This document shows, piece after piece, positions 8,374 through 16,112 of a DNA stretch of 64,000 bases. Below the pieces are notes generated by a model, which did no database searches, was not told where the DNA came from, and saw only the letters and a list, made by a program, of their open reading frames with translations. The stretch's first letter is position 1; every line of letters starts with the position of its first letter. The position numbers and the translations under genes are program-made. This DNA is from an uncultured Dehalococcoidia bacterium (lineage in GTDB: Bacteria; Chloroflexota; Dehalococcoidia; UBA6926): contig CAYOPL010000029.1 in NCBI GenBank assembly GCA_964405845.1, positions 31,056 to 95,055 of the forward strand, in the 5' to 3' direction.

Positions 8374-9732
8374 CTATTCGTACCAGCCGGACGCGAAGAT
8401 GTAGCCGTCGTGCAGGACGGCCCACGTGTGCTTGCGGGAGTCCTCGCCGGTGCCGGGGTTGCGAATCACATATTCGATCCAGACGCCCTCTTCCGTGGCG
8501 GCAAGCAGGTCATCCCCGTAGAAGTAGCCTGTTGGATCGACGCGTAGGGCAGGGTCACGATCCCTCAGATCAGGATTGAAGTGGCCGATTGTGCGGCCGG
8601 TATCCGTGTCTACGATGACCACGTACCACTGTTCATCCACGCTTATCGGATCGCTGTAATACTCGAGAGCCACGTCCAGCCCGGAGGAGTTGTACAGGTT
8701 GATTGCCTGTTCCACAAGGGCCTGGGTGTATTCCGGCTCATCGGACTTGGGAGGGCCGTCCTCATACCAGCCGGAGCCGAAGATCAGGCCGTCATGCTCA
8801 ACCAGCCATGAGTGCTTGGTCTGGGAGCGGTTGGACGTGGGATTGTAGAAGATGTACTCGGACCAAGCGCCGTCTTCCGTCGCGTCATCCGCCACGATTT
8901 GGCCGGACGGGTAGCCGTTCACGCCTGTGACATCGACGAGGGGCGTGCCAACAAGGTCCCTGTTCGCGCCATGCACGATGAGTTGACCGGTCTCATCGGC
9001 TATGAACATGTACCACTGGTCATCAACACCGCTCGGGCCGTTGTAGTAGTCGATTAGCGCCTGTCGGCCGGATGCCTCGTAAAGCCCTATTGCCAGATTG
9101 ACGTATTCCTGCGTATAGACGGGCTGGTCGGACTCTGGGCGCGCCCCGCCGGACCAGGACGATGAGGCAAAGACCAGGCCGTCGTGTTTGACGACCCAAA
9201 GGTGTTGGAGCTCGACGCTTCCAAAGAAACTGCTGGCGAGGTAGTCAATCCGGATACCCTCTTCGCGGGCGCCGTCGATCACCATCTGCCCGGCAGGGTA
9301 GTGGTTGTGCCCCTTGAATTCGGAATCATGCACCCCGACCCAATCAGGGAACGCTGCCATGGACACGATGTAGCCTTCTTCATCGAGGATGAATACGTGC
9401 CAATCACCATCAAGGCTCTCGTCGGAGTTATAGAAGGCAATCGTTTCTTCGCGCCCGTTGGTTCCGTAGTGATCGATCGCCTGTTGGACCAATGCCTGCG
9501 CATACGCCAGAGGTTCATCCTTTGAGACGGTGATAGGGGCGTCGTCAGTTTCGGTTGACGTAGCGACGCCGGTATCACCAGGTTCGGCTTCAGCTGTTGG
9601 GTCCGCCGATTCGTTGGAACAGGACGCGAGAAGTGAGACGACCACAGCCAGGACAATGAGCAGAGCTGCGAGAGAAGTGCGTTGGGCGAGCTGCCTCAAG
9701 GCAGTGGATGGAGCGACAGATGTCATTTTCAC
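8374..9732 (-). CDS. Secreted lipoprotein made of three tandem sCache_2-like (single Cache) repeats
   Basis: 452 aa with lipobox LLASC and an acidic T/E-rich tether. Three ~128-aa repeats follow, each with A(I/L)xxY..G...A..YY...S.D(D/E)QWY.FI.D..G and ...K.xW.V.HDG.IF.SGWY, matching the sCache_2 consensus. No transmembrane or output domain. Confidence 0.7.
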   Translation of the reverse strand: MKMTSVAPSTALRQLAQRTSLAALLIVLAVVVSLLASCSNESADPTAEAEPGDTGVATSTETDDAPITVSKDEPLAYAQALVQQAIDHYGTNGREETIAFYNSDESLDGDWHVFILDEEGYIVSMAAFPDWVGVHDSEFKGHNHYPAGQMVIDGAREEGIRIDYLASSFFGSVELQHLWVVKHDGLVFASSSWSGGARPESDQPVYTQEYVNLAIGLYEASGRQALIDYYNGPSGVDDQWYMFIADETGQLIVHGANRDLVGTPLVDVTGVNGYPSGQIVADDATEDGAWSEYIFYNPTSNRSQTKHSWLVEHDGLIFGSGWYEDGPPKSDEPEYTQALVEQAINLYNSSGLDVALEYYSDPISVDEQWYVVIVDTDTGRTIGHFNPDLRDRDPALRVDPTGYFYGDDLLAATEEGVWIEYVIRNPGTGEDSRKHTWAVLHDGYIFASGWYE

Positions 9733-9918
9733 TAGTAGCCTCCGCCAGGTCTTGGGTCGGCTGAATAAATGCCTGCGGCGCGGTCATACCATTGTACGAC
9801 GGGCAACTTATTGAGACTACACGGCACTTGCCAATCTCAATAAAGTTGACACTCCTGACTCACTTTGGTAATCCTGTTGCATTCCACGAATGGGTCCGCG
9901 AAAGCGCATGAGCAAATA

Positions 9919-9933
9919 TGATACTCAGTATCG
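9919..9933. promoter_or_regulatory. Fur-family (Zur-like) 7-1-7 box candidate: TGATACT-C-AGTATCG
   Basis: 11/14 match to the classical TGATAAT-N-ATTATCA motif. The core GATACT-C-AGTATC is a perfect 6-1-6 palindrome. It sits mid-way in the divergent intergenic region between the Cache lipoprotein and the metal-binding lipoprotein. Confidence 0.5.
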
Positions 9934-10034
9934 TTATTCTGCCAACTGTGTGCCTGAGCAACCCAATGTTGAGTGGGGCGAGCTGTAAGTAACACATCAC
10001 CATGGATTCACGAATCAGGATGGCTGGAGATAAG

Positions 10035-10049
10035 TGATACTGAATCTCA
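10035..10049. promoter_or_regulatory. Second, weaker Fur-family box candidate: TGATACT-G-AATCTCA
   Basis: 11/14 match to TGATAAT-N-ATTATCA. It shares the TGATACT half-site with the box at 9919 and ends 68 nt upstream of the ATG at 10118. Confidence 0.3.
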
Positions 10050-10117
10050 CTAAGGCAGACCAAGGGCGGCGTGTTACGGCCGCCGCAATAACACCGACAT
10101 TTCGGTAGGGGGACACC

Positions 10118-12415
10118 ATGAAGAAACTTCCATTCCATAGTGTGGGTACGGCAAGAGCGTTCGGTCTCTTGCTTCTTACGCTCGCGCTTTTACTGGTACT
10201 GGCTGTCGCGGCATGCGAGAGCGAGGACGATCCAACTTCGACACCCGGATCCACTGATACATCGACCGGCACGGAGCAGACGTCAAGCACCGGCACTGAC
10301 ACCAGTGGCAGCACCGACACTGGCAGTACCCAGACAGGATCGTCCGGGGATTCCCAGATGGACGGCGACCCGCTCTTGGTGGTTGCCACGAGCAACATCG
10401 TTGCCGATTGGGTGAAGAACGTCGGCGGTGACCGGGTAGAGGTGATGAGCCTGCTGCCGGTGGGCGGAGACCCGCATACATACCAGCCCGGGGCGCGTGA
10501 CGTTGCGCACATTGTGGATGCGGACCTCGTCCTGACCGTTGGTCTTGGACTTGAGGGCGCGTGGCTTGAGGAGCTCATCCACAACGCGAGCGCTGACGAG
10601 TCGCGCATCATCGCCCTTGGCGGCGCCATCGACCCGATTGAATTCGCAGAGACCGGCGGCCATCACGACGAAGAAGAGGAAATGGAGGAGATGGGCCATG
10701 AGGAACTCTCCGGCCGGCTCCTGATTGCCGATGGAGATATCGGCGCGCTGTCGGTCTTGGACCTCATGACGGATCAACTGGACGAGAGAAGCCTGGAAGT
10801 GGCGGCTCCGTCAGCAACGCTCTATACGAGCCCGAGCGGACGCTTCGCCTTTGCTCTCGCCCGCGGCCCCGAGGATGCGGACGACCGTGTCCATATCTTC
10901 GATGGCGGCGTCTACCTTGAGGAGCACGGCGATCACTTTGACCAAGTCACAGAGCCTGTTTCCGCGCTGACCGTAGGTACCTCTGATGAGGGGCCCATCA
11001 ACGTCAGTGTCCATAGCGGCTGGACCACCATCTTCCACGATGCCTCCGGACGCGTTGCGCTGTTCGAGGAACACGACCTTGAGGAAGAACTCAATGAGTA
11101 CGAGCCGACCTGGCTTGACGCAGGCGCGCAGGAGAATGGCGTGGGCGTCGCGCTGGGCGAGGGTTACGTTATGGTGACCTCCGGGAACCCGGACGCCACC
11201 GGCGTAGAGGTTCGTACGCTTGATGGCGACGTCGTCTTTGACGAGGCGTCGGGCGCATGCCCGGGCCTCCAGGGTGAGGCCGCCAACGCCCACGGCGTGG
11301 TGTTTGGCTGCGTCGGCGGCGTACTGTTCATCGAGGGCCATGACGGCGAATACGAGTACGAGTTCGTCGAGAACCCGGCCGACATGAATGCAGCGGCCCG
11401 CATCAGCACGCTGTGGGGCCATGATGACTCCGAGTACTTCTTCGGCTCCGCCTCGTACAGGGATGATCAGGGTAATCGTCTTAACGGCGGGCTCTGGAGG
11501 ATCGATGCCGAGGGCGGCGAAATGTCGCTCATCTTGCCTCCAACCGACGAGAAGCGTGTGGTAAGTGTTGCGTTTGATGGTCACGGCGAGGAACTGTTCG
11601 CCCTGACGTACGACGGCGTACTAAATGTCATCCATCCGGAAGAGGGCGAGGTAGAGGAAACCTACGAGCTTGTAGAGGCGTTTGACGGCGACACCTCGCC
11701 ATCGTTCATCGTCGTTGGCGAGCTGCTCTACCTGTCAGACAGGGTTGGCGGGCGCATTATTGAGTTCAGCCTTGAAGAGGGCGAGATTGAGCGTGAGTGG
11801 GCCATCGGCGGGCAGCCGCGCAGCCTGGCGTTCGTCGGGTTGGGCGTCGAGGAGAGCGAAGAGGGCCACGCCGACCATGGCCACGGGCCGCTTGATCCGC
11901 ACTTCTGGTTCGACCCGAATCGCGTCAGTGACGCCGTCATTGAAATCGCCACCCGACTTGCCATTCTGGATCCGGCCGGGGTGGAGACCTACACGGCTAA
12001 CGCCACCGCTTACGTAGCTCAGCTGCAGGAGCTCCACGCGTGGACCGAACAGCAACTGAGCGGCATCCCCAACGAAGACCGAATCCTCATCACGTCGCAT
12101 GACAGCCTCAGCTACTTCGCTGTCGTGTACGGGTTCGAAGTTGTTGGCACCGTCATCCCTGGCGGGACCACGGAGACGGAATCGTCCGCCGAACAGCTTG
12201 CCGAGCTCATTGAGATTGTGGAACACGAGGGTGTTCAGGCCATCTTCGGCGAGACGACTGTTTCGGAACGAATCGCTCGTGCTGTCGCCGAGGAGACGGG
12301 CGCAGGGTTCTACAGCCTGTACTCCGGCTCCCTTGGCGCGGCGGGCAGCGGCGCGGACACGTTCCTTACGATGATCCGCAGCAACGTTGAGATCATCGCG
12401 GAGGCTTTGGGCTAG
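10118..12415 (+). CDS. Cluster A-I (ZnuA/TroA-type) metal-binding lipoprotein with a ~380-aa beta-propeller-like domain nested in the His-rich loop
   Basis: 765 aa with lipobox LAVAAC and an S/T/G/D tether. N-lobe: LLVVATSNIVADWVKNVGG, GGDPHTYQP. C-lobe: LDPHFWFDP, TSHDSLSYFA, IFGETTVSE. Between GGHHDEEEEMEEMGHEE (about 10655-10708) and EESEEGHADHGHG (about 11849-11890) lies a beta-strand-rich insert (VHIFDGGVYLEEHGDHFD, GVVFGCVGGVLFIEG, LFALTYDGVLNVI, LYLSDRVGGRIIEF). Confidence 0.85.
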   Translation: MKKLPFHSVGTARAFGLLLLTLALLLVLAVAACESEDDPTSTPGSTDTSTGTEQTSSTGTDTSGSTDTGSTQTGSSGDSQMDGDPLLVVATSNIVADWVKNVGGDRVEVMSLLPVGGDPHTYQPGARDVAHIVDADLVLTVGLGLEGAWLEELIHNASADESRIIALGGAIDPIEFAETGGHHDEEEEMEEMGHEELSGRLLIADGDIGALSVLDLMTDQLDERSLEVAAPSATLYTSPSGRFAFALARGPEDADDRVHIFDGGVYLEEHGDHFDQVTEPVSALTVGTSDEGPINVSVHSGWTTIFHDASGRVALFEEHDLEEELNEYEPTWLDAGAQENGVGVALGEGYVMVTSGNPDATGVEVRTLDGDVVFDEASGACPGLQGEAANAHGVVFGCVGGVLFIEGHDGEYEYEFVENPADMNAAARISTLWGHDDSEYFFGSASYRDDQGNRLNGGLWRIDAEGGEMSLILPPTDEKRVVSVAFDGHGEELFALTYDGVLNVIHPEEGEVEETYELVEAFDGDTSPSFIVVGELLYLSDRVGGRIIEFSLEEGEIEREWAIGGQPRSLAFVGLGVEESEEGHADHGHGPLDPHFWFDPNRVSDAVIEIATRLAILDPAGVETYTANATAYVAQLQELHAWTEQQLSGIPNEDRILITSHDSLSYFAVVYGFEVVGTVIPGGTTETESSAEQLAELIEIVEHEGVQAIFGETTVSERIARAVAEETGAGFYSLYSGSLGAAGSGADTFLTMIRSNVEIIAEALG

Positions 12416-12445: not shown

Positions 12446-12492
12446 AGGCGAGGGTCGGCTCCCAGCCCCGGGCGCCGGCTCCTCGCCTTTTT
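12446..12492 (+). terminator. Rho-independent terminator candidate after the metal-binding lipoprotein gene
   Basis: AGGCGAGG (12446-12453) pairs with CCTCGCCT (12481-12488), with additional CGGC/GCCG pairing inside. A TTTTT run follows directly. Confidence 0.55.
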
Positions 12493-12582
12493 CTAGCAAC
12501 GGCATGCGTCAGTTTCATTAGGCCCGCGCCACCGCTATGCCGATATAGTGGAAACCGCGACCACTGATGAGAGGGGAACCGG

Positions 12583-14442
12583 ATGACGTCCGCAGAGACG
12601 ACTGTTAGGGGATTGATGGAGAGCACGACGGCGGAGGCGCTTGCCGATCCCCGTCTTCGCAGCCTGTTAGGCGGCGCGATGCCCCGTGATGATATGCAGG
12701 CGTTCTTCCGGCGATTTCTAGTCACTCATCTGAACTCCGTGCAGATCCTCGCATTCCTAACGTCCATCGCCCCGCCGCAGGTTATGGAGGCCATCAAGGA
12801 GAACCTGCTGGAAGAGATGGGCTTTGAGGAGAGTGAGAAGTCGCACCCGGAACTTGTGGAGGACCTGGCGCGCGGGCTCGGCTACTCGGAACAGGACCTG
12901 ATCCGCGTCCACGCGGAGGCTGATGAGTCCCGACGGGCATTCATCTCCACTCCCATTCCGTATACAACCATGCGCGAGTTTGGTCTCGCCGTTCTGTTGG
13001 AAAACGTCGCCTTTGAGTATTTCCTCTCCCGATTCAGTGACGGGATGGCGAATTCGCTGGTCAACAACTATGGCCTGACTCCGGAAGCCGCCATGTGGTT
13101 CACGCTGCACGGCGAGGTTGATATTCGCCACGCGGAGGAGGGGCAGCTGGCCATACTCGGCTACGCGTCTCACTATCGGTTCGGGCCCGAGGAGTTTGAG
13201 CAGATTGCCCGGCAAACGTTTGCCGAGAACGTAGTGCTGAACCGCTACTTCCCACCCGATTCCGATGCTCCGTCGCGTCATGGCACAAGCGCCCTGAGCG
13301 CCGTCGACATCATGCCGCTTCGTATCCCGTTCCAGCAGGCGTTCACGCACTCCACCATGAGCCGTGCTGAGAGCGACGCGATTGTCGTACGGGTCACTGG
13401 TACAGATGGCGTGACCGGCTACGGCGAATCACTGCCGCGCCCCTATGTCACAGGGGAGGATGTTGAGGCCGTCGTTGGCGCGATTCGAGACGATCTCGCG
13501 CCGCAGGCGCTTGGGTTGACTCTTGAATCCGGGCCCGCCGCTGTCCCGCAGATCGACGAGTTCCTCAGCGAATGGAAACGCAACCGTCCTACGTCCGTTG
13601 GCATTGTCGCGTGGAACGCCACCGCCTGCGCGCTGGAGCTTGCGTTGCTTGATTGGGCGTTCAAGCGGGCAGGGCAGTCCGTCATGACATGGCTGCCGCC
13701 CGCTCGCGCCAACGTCACGTACACGGGGGTTATCGACGCCTCAGACCCCGCCACGGCGGCGGGCATGGCGCGGCGCTTCACTCAGGCGGGCATGACCTCC
13801 ATCAAGGTGAAGGTCGGCATCGATGATGATGCCGCGCGACTGCAGGCGGTGCGGGAGGCGGTTGGCGACGATGTTGAGATCCGCGTGGACGCCAACGGGG
13901 TATGGTCGGCTGACGGGGCGGTTGCCGCCCTGAACGCGCTCACGGCCTACAACATTGTGGCCGTGGAACAGCCGGTTACTGCCACGGACCTTGACGGCAT
14001 GAGGCAGGTCCGCGAGCAGACGGGGCTGCGCGTCATTGCGGATGAGTCACTCCTAACGGAAGAGAATGCCGCCGCGCTCATTGCCGCCAAGGCCTGTGAC
14101 GTGTTCAATATCCGTGTCTCCAAGTGCGGTGGGTTGATCGCCTCGGCTCGCATCGCTCAGATAGCCGCTGATGCCGGAGTCGGTGTGCAGATCGGCGCGC
14201 AAGTGGGGGAGACGTCGCTGCTTTCAGCGGCGGGGCGCGTACTGGCAGCGCATGTTCCGTCCCTTGAGTATCTTGAAGGGTCGTTCGGGACGCATCTGCT
14301 AAGCGAGGACATCGCATTCGAGCCGGTCATGTTCGGGTATGGAGGCCGCGGCGAATTGCTGCCACGCCCGGGGCTCGGTGTTGCGGTGAACGAGGATGCG
14401 CTGGGACAGCTGGCCCAAGAAACGATAACAATCGAACCGTAG
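12583..14442 (+). CDS. Fusion protein: heme-oxygenase-like iron-containing redox enzyme domain (N) + enolase-superfamily MLE-subgroup domain (C; dipeptide epimerase/OSBS/NSAR-like)
   Basis: 619 aa. N-terminal ~235 aa: IKENLLEEMGFEESEKSHPELVEDLARGLG, LLENVAFEYF and FTLHGEVDIRHAEEG, the carboxylate/His helix pattern of the Haem_oxygenas_2/CADD/PqqC-like family. C-terminal part: KxK motif SIKVKVG, metal ligands in IRVDANG, AVEQPV and VIADES, second catalytic Lys in FNIRVSKCGGL. Confidence 0.8.
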   Translation: MTSAETTVRGLMESTTAEALADPRLRSLLGGAMPRDDMQAFFRRFLVTHLNSVQILAFLTSIAPPQVMEAIKENLLEEMGFEESEKSHPELVEDLARGLGYSEQDLIRVHAEADESRRAFISTPIPYTTMREFGLAVLLENVAFEYFLSRFSDGMANSLVNNYGLTPEAAMWFTLHGEVDIRHAEEGQLAILGYASHYRFGPEEFEQIARQTFAENVVLNRYFPPDSDAPSRHGTSALSAVDIMPLRIPFQQAFTHSTMSRAESDAIVVRVTGTDGVTGYGESLPRPYVTGEDVEAVVGAIRDDLAPQALGLTLESGPAAVPQIDEFLSEWKRNRPTSVGIVAWNATACALELALLDWAFKRAGQSVMTWLPPARANVTYTGVIDASDPATAAGMARRFTQAGMTSIKVKVGIDDDAARLQAVREAVGDDVEIRVDANGVWSADGAVAALNALTAYNIVAVEQPVTATDLDGMRQVREQTGLRVIADESLLTEENAAALIAAKACDVFNIRVSKCGGLIASARIAQIAADAGVGVQIGAQVGETSLLSAAGRVLAAHVPSLEYLEGSFGTHLLSEDIAFEPVMFGYGGRGELLPRPGLGVAVNEDALGQLAQETITIEP

Positions 14443-14450
14443 GAATATTC

Positions 14451-16112
14451 ATGTCCCTTATCTCCCGACTCCTCGGCCTGCAGGGCCGCCTGGCCTGGAG
14501 GTCATTTGACCGCGCGACGCGTGATCCCGACGGCGCTCAACTACGCCTGTTGCAGCGCATCCTGAACGCCAATGCGGACACGATATTTGGGCGCGAGCAC
14601 GGTTTCTCCTCAATCAGCAATTTTGAGGAGTACCGGGACGCGGTTCCAGTCGGCGACTTTGAGGCCGTCCGTCCATGGGTGGACCGCATCATGGCGGGTG
14701 AGCGCAGCGTCCTGACTCGTGATGATCCGTACCTGTTTGCGATGACGAGCGGCACGGCCGGCCAGCCCAAGCTCATTCCCGTTACGACAGCCACCAGCAA
14801 GTTCGTCAGCGCGCTATCCCGTCTCTGGCTCTACCGCAACACCGTTGACCATCCGCATGTTCTTGACCACAAGGCGTTGGTCATCGTCAGTCCGGCCATT
14901 GAGGGATACACGGAGAGCGGCATTCCGTATGGCTCGGCCTCCGGCTATATCTACCGCAACGCCGCGTGGATGATCAGGCGGCGCTATGCCGTTCCGTATC
15001 CCGTCTTTGGGATCAAGGACTACGAGGCCAAATACTACACGGTTATGCGATTCGCCATCGAGCAGCAGTTGTCTCTGATCGCGTCTCCCAACCCCTCCAC
15101 GATTCTCCGTCTTGTGGATACGGCAAATGCGAATGCCGAGCGTCTCATCCGTGACATTCACGACGGCACTATCACCGGCGACGCCGAGATTGAACCCGAG
15201 CTGCGCGCCGAGCTTATTGCCCACCTCCGTCCCAACGTCTCCCGGGCTGCCGAACTCTCGACCATCCTCGAGCGGGAAGGGGCGCTGAGGCCGCGGGACT
15301 ACTGGCCGGGGCTGGCGCTTGTGGGCTGTTGGAAAGGTGGAAGTGTGGGGGCGACTGTCGACCGTCTCCGCCCGTGGTTTCCGGCCGGCATGGCTTTCCG
15401 CGACCTCGGGTTTCTTGCCAGCGAGGCGAATTTCACCCTGCCCATTGAGGATGAGGGGTCGCGCGGGATTCTCGCCATCACCGGCAACGTCTATGAATTC
15501 ATTGCGGAGGACGAGATCGATTCTCCCAACCCGCGTGTGCTCACGGCAGGCCAGCTTGAGGACGACGGGAGCTACTACGTCATCGTCACGACGCAGAGCG
15601 GCCTCTATCGCTATGACATCAACGACGTTGTCCGCGTGAACGGGTTTCATAATCGAACGCCGAAGATCGAGTTCCTGCGCAAGGGCAGGGACATGCTGAG
15701 CCTGGAGGGTGAAAAGCTGCACGTCGGGCAGCTGATTGAGGCGATGCGGGAGGCGCAGGCGGCGACCGGCGTTGCCGTCGAGTATTTTCGTGCTCTTGGC
15801 TACCCCGCCGCCAATCGCTACAGCCTGCAATTGGAGCTGCGGGATGCCGCGGCGCCGGAGGAGGCAGTCATTCGCCTGGGCAGAGCGATTGATGAGGGCC
15901 TGTCCCGCCTGAACATCGAATATGAACAGAAACGCGGCTCCGGGCGTCTCCGTCCTCCGCTTGTGCAGGTGATGGAAGACGGCTGGTCGTCGCGCCGCCT
16001 CGCCGCCAAGATGGCCAATGCCGTTCGGGATATCCAATACAAGGACGCGCTGCTGGCGCTTGCCGGGGATGACGCGGATGAGAGCGAAGTTAAACACGAG
16101 TTGACTCTCTGA
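14451..16112 (+). CDS. GH3-family acyl-acid amido synthetase (adenylate-forming)
   Basis: 553 aa. Motifs: FAMTSGTAGQPKLIPVT (GH3 motif I), YGSASGY, GLYRYDINDVVRVNGFHNRTPKIEFLRKGRDMLSLEGEKL (near-canonical GH3 motif III region). The start lies 8 nt after the stop of the fusion gene. Confidence 0.85.
   Translation: MSLISRLLGLQGRLAWRSFDRATRDPDGAQLRLLQRILNANADTIFGREHGFSSISNFEEYRDAVPVGDFEAVRPWVDRIMAGERSVLTRDDPYLFAMTSGTAGQPKLIPVTTATSKFVSALSRLWLYRNTVDHPHVLDHKALVIVSPAIEGYTESGIPYGSASGYIYRNAAWMIRRRYAVPYPVFGIKDYEAKYYTVMRFAIEQQLSLIASPNPSTILRLVDTANANAERLIRDIHDGTITGDAEIEPELRAELIAHLRPNVSRAAELSTILEREGALRPRDYWPGLALVGCWKGGSVGATVDRLRPWFPAGMAFRDLGFLASEANFTLPIEDEGSRGILAITGNVYEFIAEDEIDSPNPRVLTAGQLEDDGSYYVIVTTQSGLYRYDINDVVRVNGFHNRTPKIEFLRKGRDMLSLEGEKLHVGQLIEAMREAQAATGVAVEYFRALGYPAANRYSLQLELRDAAAPEEAVIRLGRAIDEGLSRLNIEYEQKRGSGRLRPPLVQVMEDGWSSRRLAAKMANAVRDIQYKDALLALAGDDADESEVKHELTL

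Follow-up and report, generated by a model that had tools for sequence, protein, structure and literature searches.

The gene at positions 10118-12415 (forward strand) of a 64,000-nucleotide stretch of DNA from an uncultured Dehalococcoidia bacterium (contig CAYOPL010000029.1; the whole stretch is called the window below) is predicted to encode a zinc-type substrate-binding protein (SBP) of an ATP-binding cassette (ABC) importer, with a homologue of the zinc chaperone AztD nested inside its chain. The reading that we favour, with a probability of about 0.6, is that of an AztC-like zinc SBP with three His ligands that carries the AztD homologue in its D-loop and would, as a surface lipoprotein, hand zinc to an importer. 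An earlier note, made from the letters of the window, had proposed an AztD-type module inserted into the His-rich loop of a metal-binding lipoprotein, not appended to it, and sequence, ligands and predicted fold agree on this point. It had also supposed the architecture to be undescribed: no description of a fused or nested AztD was found in PMC or bioRxiv, the key AztD papers included and subscription-only literature being outside the search, but the architecture is not rare (at least 572 stretches listed in GTDB species genomes). The partners are known; it is their nested topology, common in one phylum, that is apparently undescribed.

The SBP motifs quoted in that note, GGDPHTYQP (aa 116-124), LDPHFWFDP (592-600) and TSHDSLSYF (659-667), are all present in the translation, as are its five quoted segments of a beta-rich insert. 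The parts of the gene are given here in window coordinates; conservation counts refer throughout to an alignment of 99 nested-fusion family sequences, from which the AlphaFold2 model was also built, and pLDDT is the predicted local distance difference test of that model.

10118..12415, forward strand: gene of the nested SBP[AztD] lipoprotein (765 aa, ATG start, stop codon included)
10118..10216, forward strand: predicted signal peptide and lipobox LAVAAC with Cys33 (read from the sequence; family conservation; helix 10-31 in the model)
10217..10366, forward strand: Ser/Thr/Gly/Asp-rich tether, aa 34-83, predicted to be disordered (pLDDT below 50 at residues 33-78; composition)
10367..10645, forward strand: N-lobe of the SBP, aa 84-176, with the ligand His120 in GGDPH (first PF01297 stretch; PDB SBP alignments; His120 invariant in 99/99)
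10646..10711, forward strand: N-side junction linker, aa 177-198, His/Glu-rich, AETGGHHDEEEEMEEMGHEELS (pLDDT below 50 at 180-193)
10712..11842, forward strand: AztD-like beta-propeller, aa 199-575 (NCBIfam AztD; PDB 6cmk and 6ck1; Foldseek; AlphaFold2)
10925..10942, forward strand: site-2 hairpin H270-G-D-H273-F-D275 (aligns with solved AztDs; model strands 265-270 and 273-278)
11843..11890, forward strand: C-side junction linker, aa 576-591, GVEESEEGHADHGHGP; its His587 and His589 are invariant (pLDDT below 50 at 578-591)
11891..12412, forward strand: inter-lobe helix and C-lobe of the SBP, aa 592-765 (second PF01297 stretch; PDB alignments; conservation; helices 600-647)

The insert of 377 residues lies between the two SBP lobes, and the His-rich loop described as split is indeed found in two halves, GGHHDEEEEMEEMGHEE (aa 180-196) and EESEEGHADHGHG (aa 578-590). 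Both junction linkers are His/Asp/Glu-rich in the whole family, and both vary in length, the N-side one between 16 and 52 residues. Ala32 and Cys33 are conserved in at least 90% of the family alignment, and by its lipobox Cys33 the window protein is predicted to be a bacterial lipoprotein.

The similarity of the insert to AztD, expected from the earlier note, was found at the level of both sequence and predicted fold. The NCBIfam AztD model (NF038015) aligned nearly end to end, its positions 3-354 (of 356) with residues 205-573 (E 4e-35, 121-124 bits); no propeller or AztD model of Pfam matched the insert, and Pfam appears to be without an AztD family. The only two solved structures matching the insert by sequence are AztDs: 6cmk (E 4e-14) and 6ck1 (E 6e-11). 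The AlphaFold2 model has a mean pLDDT of 83.7, with values mostly above 90 in the SBP and propeller domains and four low-confidence segments (the N-terminus, the tether and the linkers 180-193 and 578-591), and about 34 beta-strands were predicted in the propeller domain. In the Foldseek comparison against the PDB, nine AztD chains came on top (E 6e-29 to 2e-23; template modelling score, TM, 0.83-0.86), and the insert superposed on the AztD crystal structures with a root-mean-square deviation of about 3 Å over about 390 columns, as an eight-bladed propeller.

In AztD, site 1 (His124/His167/His218) is located in the central pore, and site 2 (His99, His102 and Asp104 plus the C-terminal His408) on an extension of the N- and C-terminal strands with a hairpin (PMC6689063); site 1 is conserved in at least 95% of AztDs. 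Zinc reaches AztC from site 2 only, and the delta-S1 triple mutant transfers as the wild type (PMC6689063), while the D-loop of AztC is essential for transfer from AztD to AztC (PMC7463823). The motifs HGDHRD and HGDHAD of the solved AztDs align with residues 270-275 of the window protein, HGDHFD; these are the equivalent of His99-Gly100-x-His102-x-Asp104 of Paracoccus denitrificans AztD, and the three site-2 residues among them (H270, H273, D275) are invariant (99/99). The counterpart of the C-terminal site-2 His would probably be His587 or His589. Cys381 and Cys398, also invariant (99/99), align with the disulfide pair Cys214/Cys231 of AztD. Another invariant position is residue 408 of the window protein, a His (IEGHDGE; nt 11339-11341) kept in 99/99 nested fusions, where the free-standing AztDs of known structure have Gly or Ala; this His is thus specific to the family.

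Site 1 behaves differently, so the claim that the insert is an AztD stands for site 2, the Cys pair and the fold but not for full equivalence: site 1 is wholly absent from the window protein (Asn295/Asn340/Gln385). The three His are kept in 90/99 family members, and the window protein is the sole member without all three. As the delta-S1 mutant transfers, site 1 would be dispensable for transfer, and by its sequence the window copy amounts to a delta-S1 AztD made by nature and placed inside its own acceptor. The window propeller is under purifying selection despite this loss: its ratio of non-synonymous to synonymous substitution rates (dN/dS) is 0.11-0.13 against the closest orthologues, with 0.05-0.09 for the SBP lobes in most comparisons. 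Site-1 degeneration was found in 5/39 copies without transporter genes and in 0/44 transporter-linked copies (Fisher P = 0.02, phylogeny being ignored), the five degenerate copies representing about 3-4 independent events; this suggests that the constraint on site 1 is relaxed or altered in the orphan paralogues.

Both lobes of the SBP are present, as claimed: PF01297 (ZnuA) matched with 259 bits (cut-off 29) in two separate stretches around the insert. The structures of MntA, PsaA, SitA, MtsA, YfeA, TroA and AztC align with residues ~77-180 and ~590-764 and leave the insert unmatched, and Foldseek aligned whole cluster A-I SBPs across it (TM 0.83-0.87; MtsA 0.87, AztC 0.83, PsaA). The metal ligands His120, His595 (DPHFW) and His661 (SHD) are invariant (99/99); SHD aligns where the manganese SBPs (PsaA, MntA) read TSEG. 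H587 and H589 are invariant within H-x-H-G-P-L-D-P-H595, and W597 is also invariant. Gly737 occupies the position of PsaA Asp280, so the site would be a three-His site. With three His ligands and a His/acidic loop, the window SBP would be classed as zinc-type. A subclade of four related loci (L066, L072, L078, L079) has Asp in place of this Gly (HHHD), and its members have a Fur-family neighbour and no adjacent ATPase or permease.

In the homology search, more than 100 clusters shared this architecture, with proteins 740-830 aa long and identities falling to about 45%; complete chromosomes are among the genomes that carry it. Nearly all of the listed GTDB stretches belong to Chloroflexota. Public names of the members are "hypothetical protein" or plain "zinc ABC transporter substrate-binding protein". 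The locus analysis covered the best 80 of the at least 572 stretches, almost all from Dehalococcoidia (including SAR202) and Caldilineaceae, with a few from Acidimicrobiia; their open reading frames were clustered and the representatives were scanned with Pfam. Where the fusion gene stops, an ABC ATPase gene starts in 49/80 loci; next to it comes an ABC-3 permease (PF00950) in 44/80. Upstream, at a distance of about 130 nt, 38/80 have a Fur-family gene, and downstream 13/80 have genes of a COG0523 CobW-type GTPase and of a WD40 protein. In these 13 (L031, L039-L041, L045, L046, L060, L064, L065, L068, L069, L074, L078), the GTPase is always followed by the WD40-repeat protein, of 366 aa. In NCBIfam, the permease of the related loci scored best as AztB (204 bits) and the ATPase as MntA or AztA. 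The same neighbourhood (permease, ATPase, Fur family, COG0523) has been reported for free-standing aztD.

The window copy was called an orphan in the earlier note, and this is correct for its locus and its clade. Neither Pfam nor tblastn with Fur, permease and CobW queries from the family found an ABC-3 permease, cognate ATPase, Fur-family or COG0523 gene in the 64-kb window. Two candidate ZnuBC pairs were rejected: the genes at 32.4-34.1 kb encode a HAD hydrolase and an auxin-efflux-type Mem_trans protein, and those at 60.9-63.1 kb are an ABC-2 exporter-type pair. The window copy belongs to a monophyletic clade (with L001-L006, L021, L022, L050 and L061) without transporter partners and flanked by a divergent Cache-repeat lipoprotein gene and a haem-oxygenase-like/enolase fusion gene. 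The label does not hold for the family, with its SBP-ATPase-permease operon in 44-49/80 loci, and probably not for the organism. One orphan and one operon-linked copy were found together in several genomes (L014/L019 and L017/L020). A permease (P0149) is encoded on a contig of 205,354 bp, and the window protein is likewise on a contig of 205,354 bp; the Logan twin of this permease (P0241), from the same sample, lies on a 2.4-kb contig with a partial SBP C-lobe, ATPase and permease in order. The C-lobe on that contig is 56% identical to the window protein and ~78% identical to operon-linked nested fusions. From the equal contig size and the shared sample, a canonical SBP-ATPase-permease set is probably present elsewhere on the contig of the window, and with such a paralogous set "orphan" would describe the locus and not the organism. 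The canonical paralogue was not obtained at full length.

The window copy retains the putative Fur-type operator of its family (TGATACTnAGTATCA). The non-coding features around the gene are:

9919..9933, no strand assigned: operator-like 7-1-7 palindrome TGATACTCAGTATCG, its core GATACTCAGTATC at 9920-9932 being perfect (enrichment 5' of family genes)
10036..10048, no strand assigned: degenerate second copy of the operator-like core, GATACTGAATCTC (2 mismatches; about 70 nt upstream of the start codon)
12446..12493, forward strand: intrinsic terminator, hairpin 12446-12488 followed by U5 (-34.4 kcal/mol, z = -4.9 against shuffles)

Within the 385-bp upstream region, the palindrome at 9919-9933 is shaped like the classic 7-1-7 box of the Fur family, TGATAATnATTATCA. 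When the core was searched, with at most one mismatch allowed, in 1.68 Mb of sequence from the related loci plus the window, 29/34 matches fell within the 3.4% of the sequence located just 5' of a fusion gene or of the Fur-family neighbour (binomial P ~6e-38), distant family members included. Two related loci (L001 and L002) have a better second copy, GATACTGAATATC, at the equivalent relative position. The regulator acting on these boxes would probably be Zur. The palindrome overlaps a minus-strand sigma70-like promoter (9945..9918), so the Cache lipoprotein encoded at 8374-9732 may share its regulation with the zinc SBP. The terminator noted earlier downstream of the gene is present: a simple consensus scan missed it, and RNA folding detected it.

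In the mechanism that we propose, the host is a monoderm (Chloroflexota, Dehalococcoidia) and the protein would be tethered at the cell surface, where zinc would be captured by the His/acidic linkers and by propeller site 2 (His270, His273 and Asp275, probably with His587 or His589 of the linker). Since the termini of AztD form the site-2 extension, insertion in the D-loop would place site 2 beside the SBP cleft: the extension of the N- and C-terminal strands would adjoin both junctions, tethering site 2 within about 20 residues of His595, and H587 and H589 stand 6-8 residues before this ligand. Zinc would then be handed intramolecularly to the higher-affinity His120/His595/His661 site, which would act as a kinetic trap, and the loaded SBP would dock on an AztB/AztA-like ABC-3 importer. 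For the orphan paralogue of the window, the putative Fur-type (probably Zur) operator would bring induction under zinc shortage, and this copy would most likely share the importer with the canonical paralogue, as AdcAII shares AdcCB with AdcA; two SBPs use one importer in Streptococcus pneumoniae (PMC7858048). More tentatively, the fusion may be an intramolecular relay that replaces a slow, rate-limiting encounter between AztD and AztC, with the invariant H-x-H-G linker as a swinging ligand common to site 2 and the SBP site, the His-rich loop of zinc SBPs as a general plug-in socket for modules that recruit zinc, and the site-1-null orphan as a higher-affinity scavenger feeding the shared importer under zinc starvation; the scavenger part is suggested by analogy with the tighter site 2 of the delta-S1 mutant.

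Several results weigh against the reading of a zinc SBP served by a nested AztD. The scores of the window protein and its relatives are under the curated NCBIfam cut-offs for AztD (121-124 against 400 bits), the AztC equivalog (NF040870; 256 against 350), AztB (204 against 280) and AztA (193 against 220), and the Deinococcus MntC and MntA models score as high as the Azt models. The Fur-family regulator of the related loci scored best as Fur or PerR and was not typed as Zur in NCBIfam. The position of PsaA Asp280 and AztC Asp279 is Gly in 98/99 sequences, so the metal site is unlike that of AztC in detail. The orientation of the propeller relative to the SBP is predicted with low confidence only (predicted template modelling score of the AlphaFold2 model 0.59; pLDDT below 50 in both linkers). 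In the published docking model, the D-loop passes through the pore of AztD, which is not literally possible when the propeller belongs to the loop. As to the sharing of an importer, AztC and ZnuA of P. denitrificans are each reportedly specific for its own system (PMC7731109). Finally, a homology search with the C-lobe of L082 gave short C-lobe fragments only, none of them from the 205-kb contig.

Several other explanations have to be weighed. It is unlikely, though a real prospect, that the orphan copy has ceased to serve a transporter and works as a zinc-regulated surface store, buffer or scavenger, or as a donor to the canonical paralogue. This would fit the lack of transporter genes within 64 kb, the monophyly of the orphan clade with its own conserved neighbours, the tandem orphan paralogues of L002 and L004, and the decay of site 1 in transporter-less copies only (5/39 against 0/44, P = 0.02 with phylogeny ignored), which hints at a shifted role. 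However, the His triad of the SBP is invariant, and purifying selection is stronger on its lobes (dN/dS 0.05-0.09) than on the propeller, which would be expected with docking and release still of importance, and the genomes with one orphan and one operon-linked copy (L014/L019, L017/L020) fit the precedent of AdcA and AdcAII. The tandem paralogues themselves (L002, 7148-9493 and 9917-12250; L004, 7312-9645 and 10001-12337) are nested fusions ~71% and 85% identical to the window protein, and in L002 both have operator-like boxes upstream.

That the metal is not zinc (e.g. manganese or iron), with the propeller as a chaperone or filter for it, seems quite improbable to us. The scores of Deinococcus MntC (255.7 bits) and MntA (237 bits), as high as those of the Azt models, the assignment of the Fur-family gene to Fur or PerR and the manganese SBPs MntA and PsaA as top PDB sequence matches speak for it; against them stand the invariant His (SHD) as third ligand, where manganese and iron SBPs have Glu, the His/acidic loop as a hallmark of zinc SBPs, the conserved site-2 ligands, the COG0523 neighbours, the ZinT co-fused in relatives and the name given by NCBI to one member (zinc ABC transporter SBP). 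Very improbable, in our judgement, is a propeller that serves as a structural or interaction module only (a spacer from the cell wall, an adhesin or a platform for partners), its likeness to AztD being ancestral. In its favour, site 1 is lost from the window copy, the AztD score is far under the curated cut-off, beta-propellers in general serve as scaffolds for interactions, and many names of related metagenome-assembled genomes hint at association with sponge hosts (as inferred from the names); yet the site-2 ligands, the linker His and the Cys pair are invariant down to ~48% overall identity, the operon partners are zinc-uptake genes, and the insert lies exactly in the loop that mediates transfer from AztD to AztC, which weighs against a mere structural module. 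An assembly or gene-calling artefact joining an SBP gene and an aztD gene has a negligible probability: a chimeric assembly, raised as a concern in the earlier note, is refuted by an independent Logan assembly (SRR16090826) with the identical 765-aa protein and the same neighbours, and by at least 572 stretches and more than 100 clusters in which homologues have their parts in this order, complete chromosomes included. Moreover, the reading frame is unbroken, the GC content stays uniform along the gene, junctions included, and each of the three parts has a low dN/dS.

Compared with known systems, the window protein is closest to AztC and AztD of P. denitrificans and Citrobacter koseri, with which it shares a cluster A-I SBP with a His-rich loop, an eight-bladed propeller, the HGDHxD hairpin and the Cys pair. 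The Trp two residues past the second His ligand (W597) corresponds to AztC Trp140, and the family neighbourhood is that of AztABCD (ABC-3 permease, best as AztB, ATPase, Fur family and COG0523). In contrast to those systems, where AztC and AztD are separate proteins, they are here parts of one chain with AztD within the D-loop; Gly737 replaces the Asp fourth ligand, no score reaches its equivalog cut-off, site 1 is missing from the window copy, and the predicted product is a lipoprotein on a long tether in a monoderm Chloroflexota host. Streptococcal AdcA is also a single-chain zinc SBP lipoprotein with an accessory zinc module and a His-rich loop, and its accessory regions help uptake in severe zinc restriction (PMC7858048); however, its lipocalin-like ZinT is appended C-terminally by an 11-residue linker, whereas AztD interrupts the SBP fold at the loop. 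AdcAII (Lmb/Lbp group) is likewise encoded by an orphan, zinc-regulated SBP gene, importer sharing being only inferred here, but it has no His-rich loop and no fused accessory domain, and works with Pht proteins. The ZnuA and free ZinT of enterobacteria differ in being separate proteins with a different accessory fold; the proteobacterial ZnuA models gave 59 bits with the window protein.

The transfer from AztD to AztC is the best studied of very few mechanistically understood protein-to-protein zinc transfers, and the transfer complex is known from a docking model only. A natural single-chain AztC[AztD] sets the stoichiometry and proximity of donor and acceptor, and it should be far easier to trap structurally than a transient complex of two proteins. 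The conservation found here agrees with AztD mutagenesis: site 2 is invariant beside the junctions, site 1 has been lost repeatedly, and the insertion lies in the transfer loop. Hundreds of Chloroflexota annotations ("hypothetical" or zinc SBP) hide an unannotated AztD-like module, which is relevant to zinc acquisition by the abundant marine, possibly host-associated Dehalococcoidia and Caldilineaceae.

The loop of zinc SBPs accepts whole domains, namely a single AztD, a pair of AztDs, or ZinT together with AztD. In a survey of 555 AztD-like representatives (50% clustering), most were free-standing proteins of 400-470 aa. Nested ZnuA[AztD] proteins were also found in four distant members (P0267, P0274, P0278, P0308), with propellers ~30-37% identical. 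Three proteins read directly (P0017, P0029, P0053) have two tandem AztDs in one SBP loop, each with its own His-rich linkers; these double variants span 1050-1340 aa, P0053 (1054 aa) being N-terminally truncated, and the length and two matched stretches of P0242 suggest that it is another. P0282 (637 aa) combines ZinT and AztD without an SBP, while in P0300 (895 aa) ZinT and then AztD stand between the N-lobe and the C-lobe of the SBP, and the position of the fourth ligand is Asp again. The co-fusion with ZinT gives independent support for a role of the AztD module in zinc recruitment; ZinT was not matched by Pfam in the window protein.

Some further features of the window surround the gene. 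A GC-rich hairpin (GGCGGC-gtgttac-GGCCGCC, ~10066-10087, forward strand) lies in the presumed 5' untranslated region, about 30 nt 5' of the Shine-Dalgarno sequence. An Rfam scan of both non-coding flanks found no riboswitch, only a chance match to a snoRNA model far under its gathering score, and did not match this hairpin. Upstream, positions 8374-9732 (reverse strand) encode a 452-aa predicted lipoprotein with three sCache_2-like repeats (Pfam) and no NCBIfam match; this lipoprotein is the constant divergent neighbour in the orphan clade, and six loci have 2-4 tandem copies of it (L003, L005, L006, L022, L050, L061). Downstream, positions 12583-14442 (forward strand) encode a 619-aa fusion of a PF14518 haem-oxygenase-like iron-containing redox domain and an MR_MLE domain of the enolase superfamily; the position of this fusion gene after the SBP gene is conserved in 8 related loci. 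Nine nucleotides after this fusion gene, positions 14451-16112 (forward strand) encode a GH3-family adenylating enzyme.

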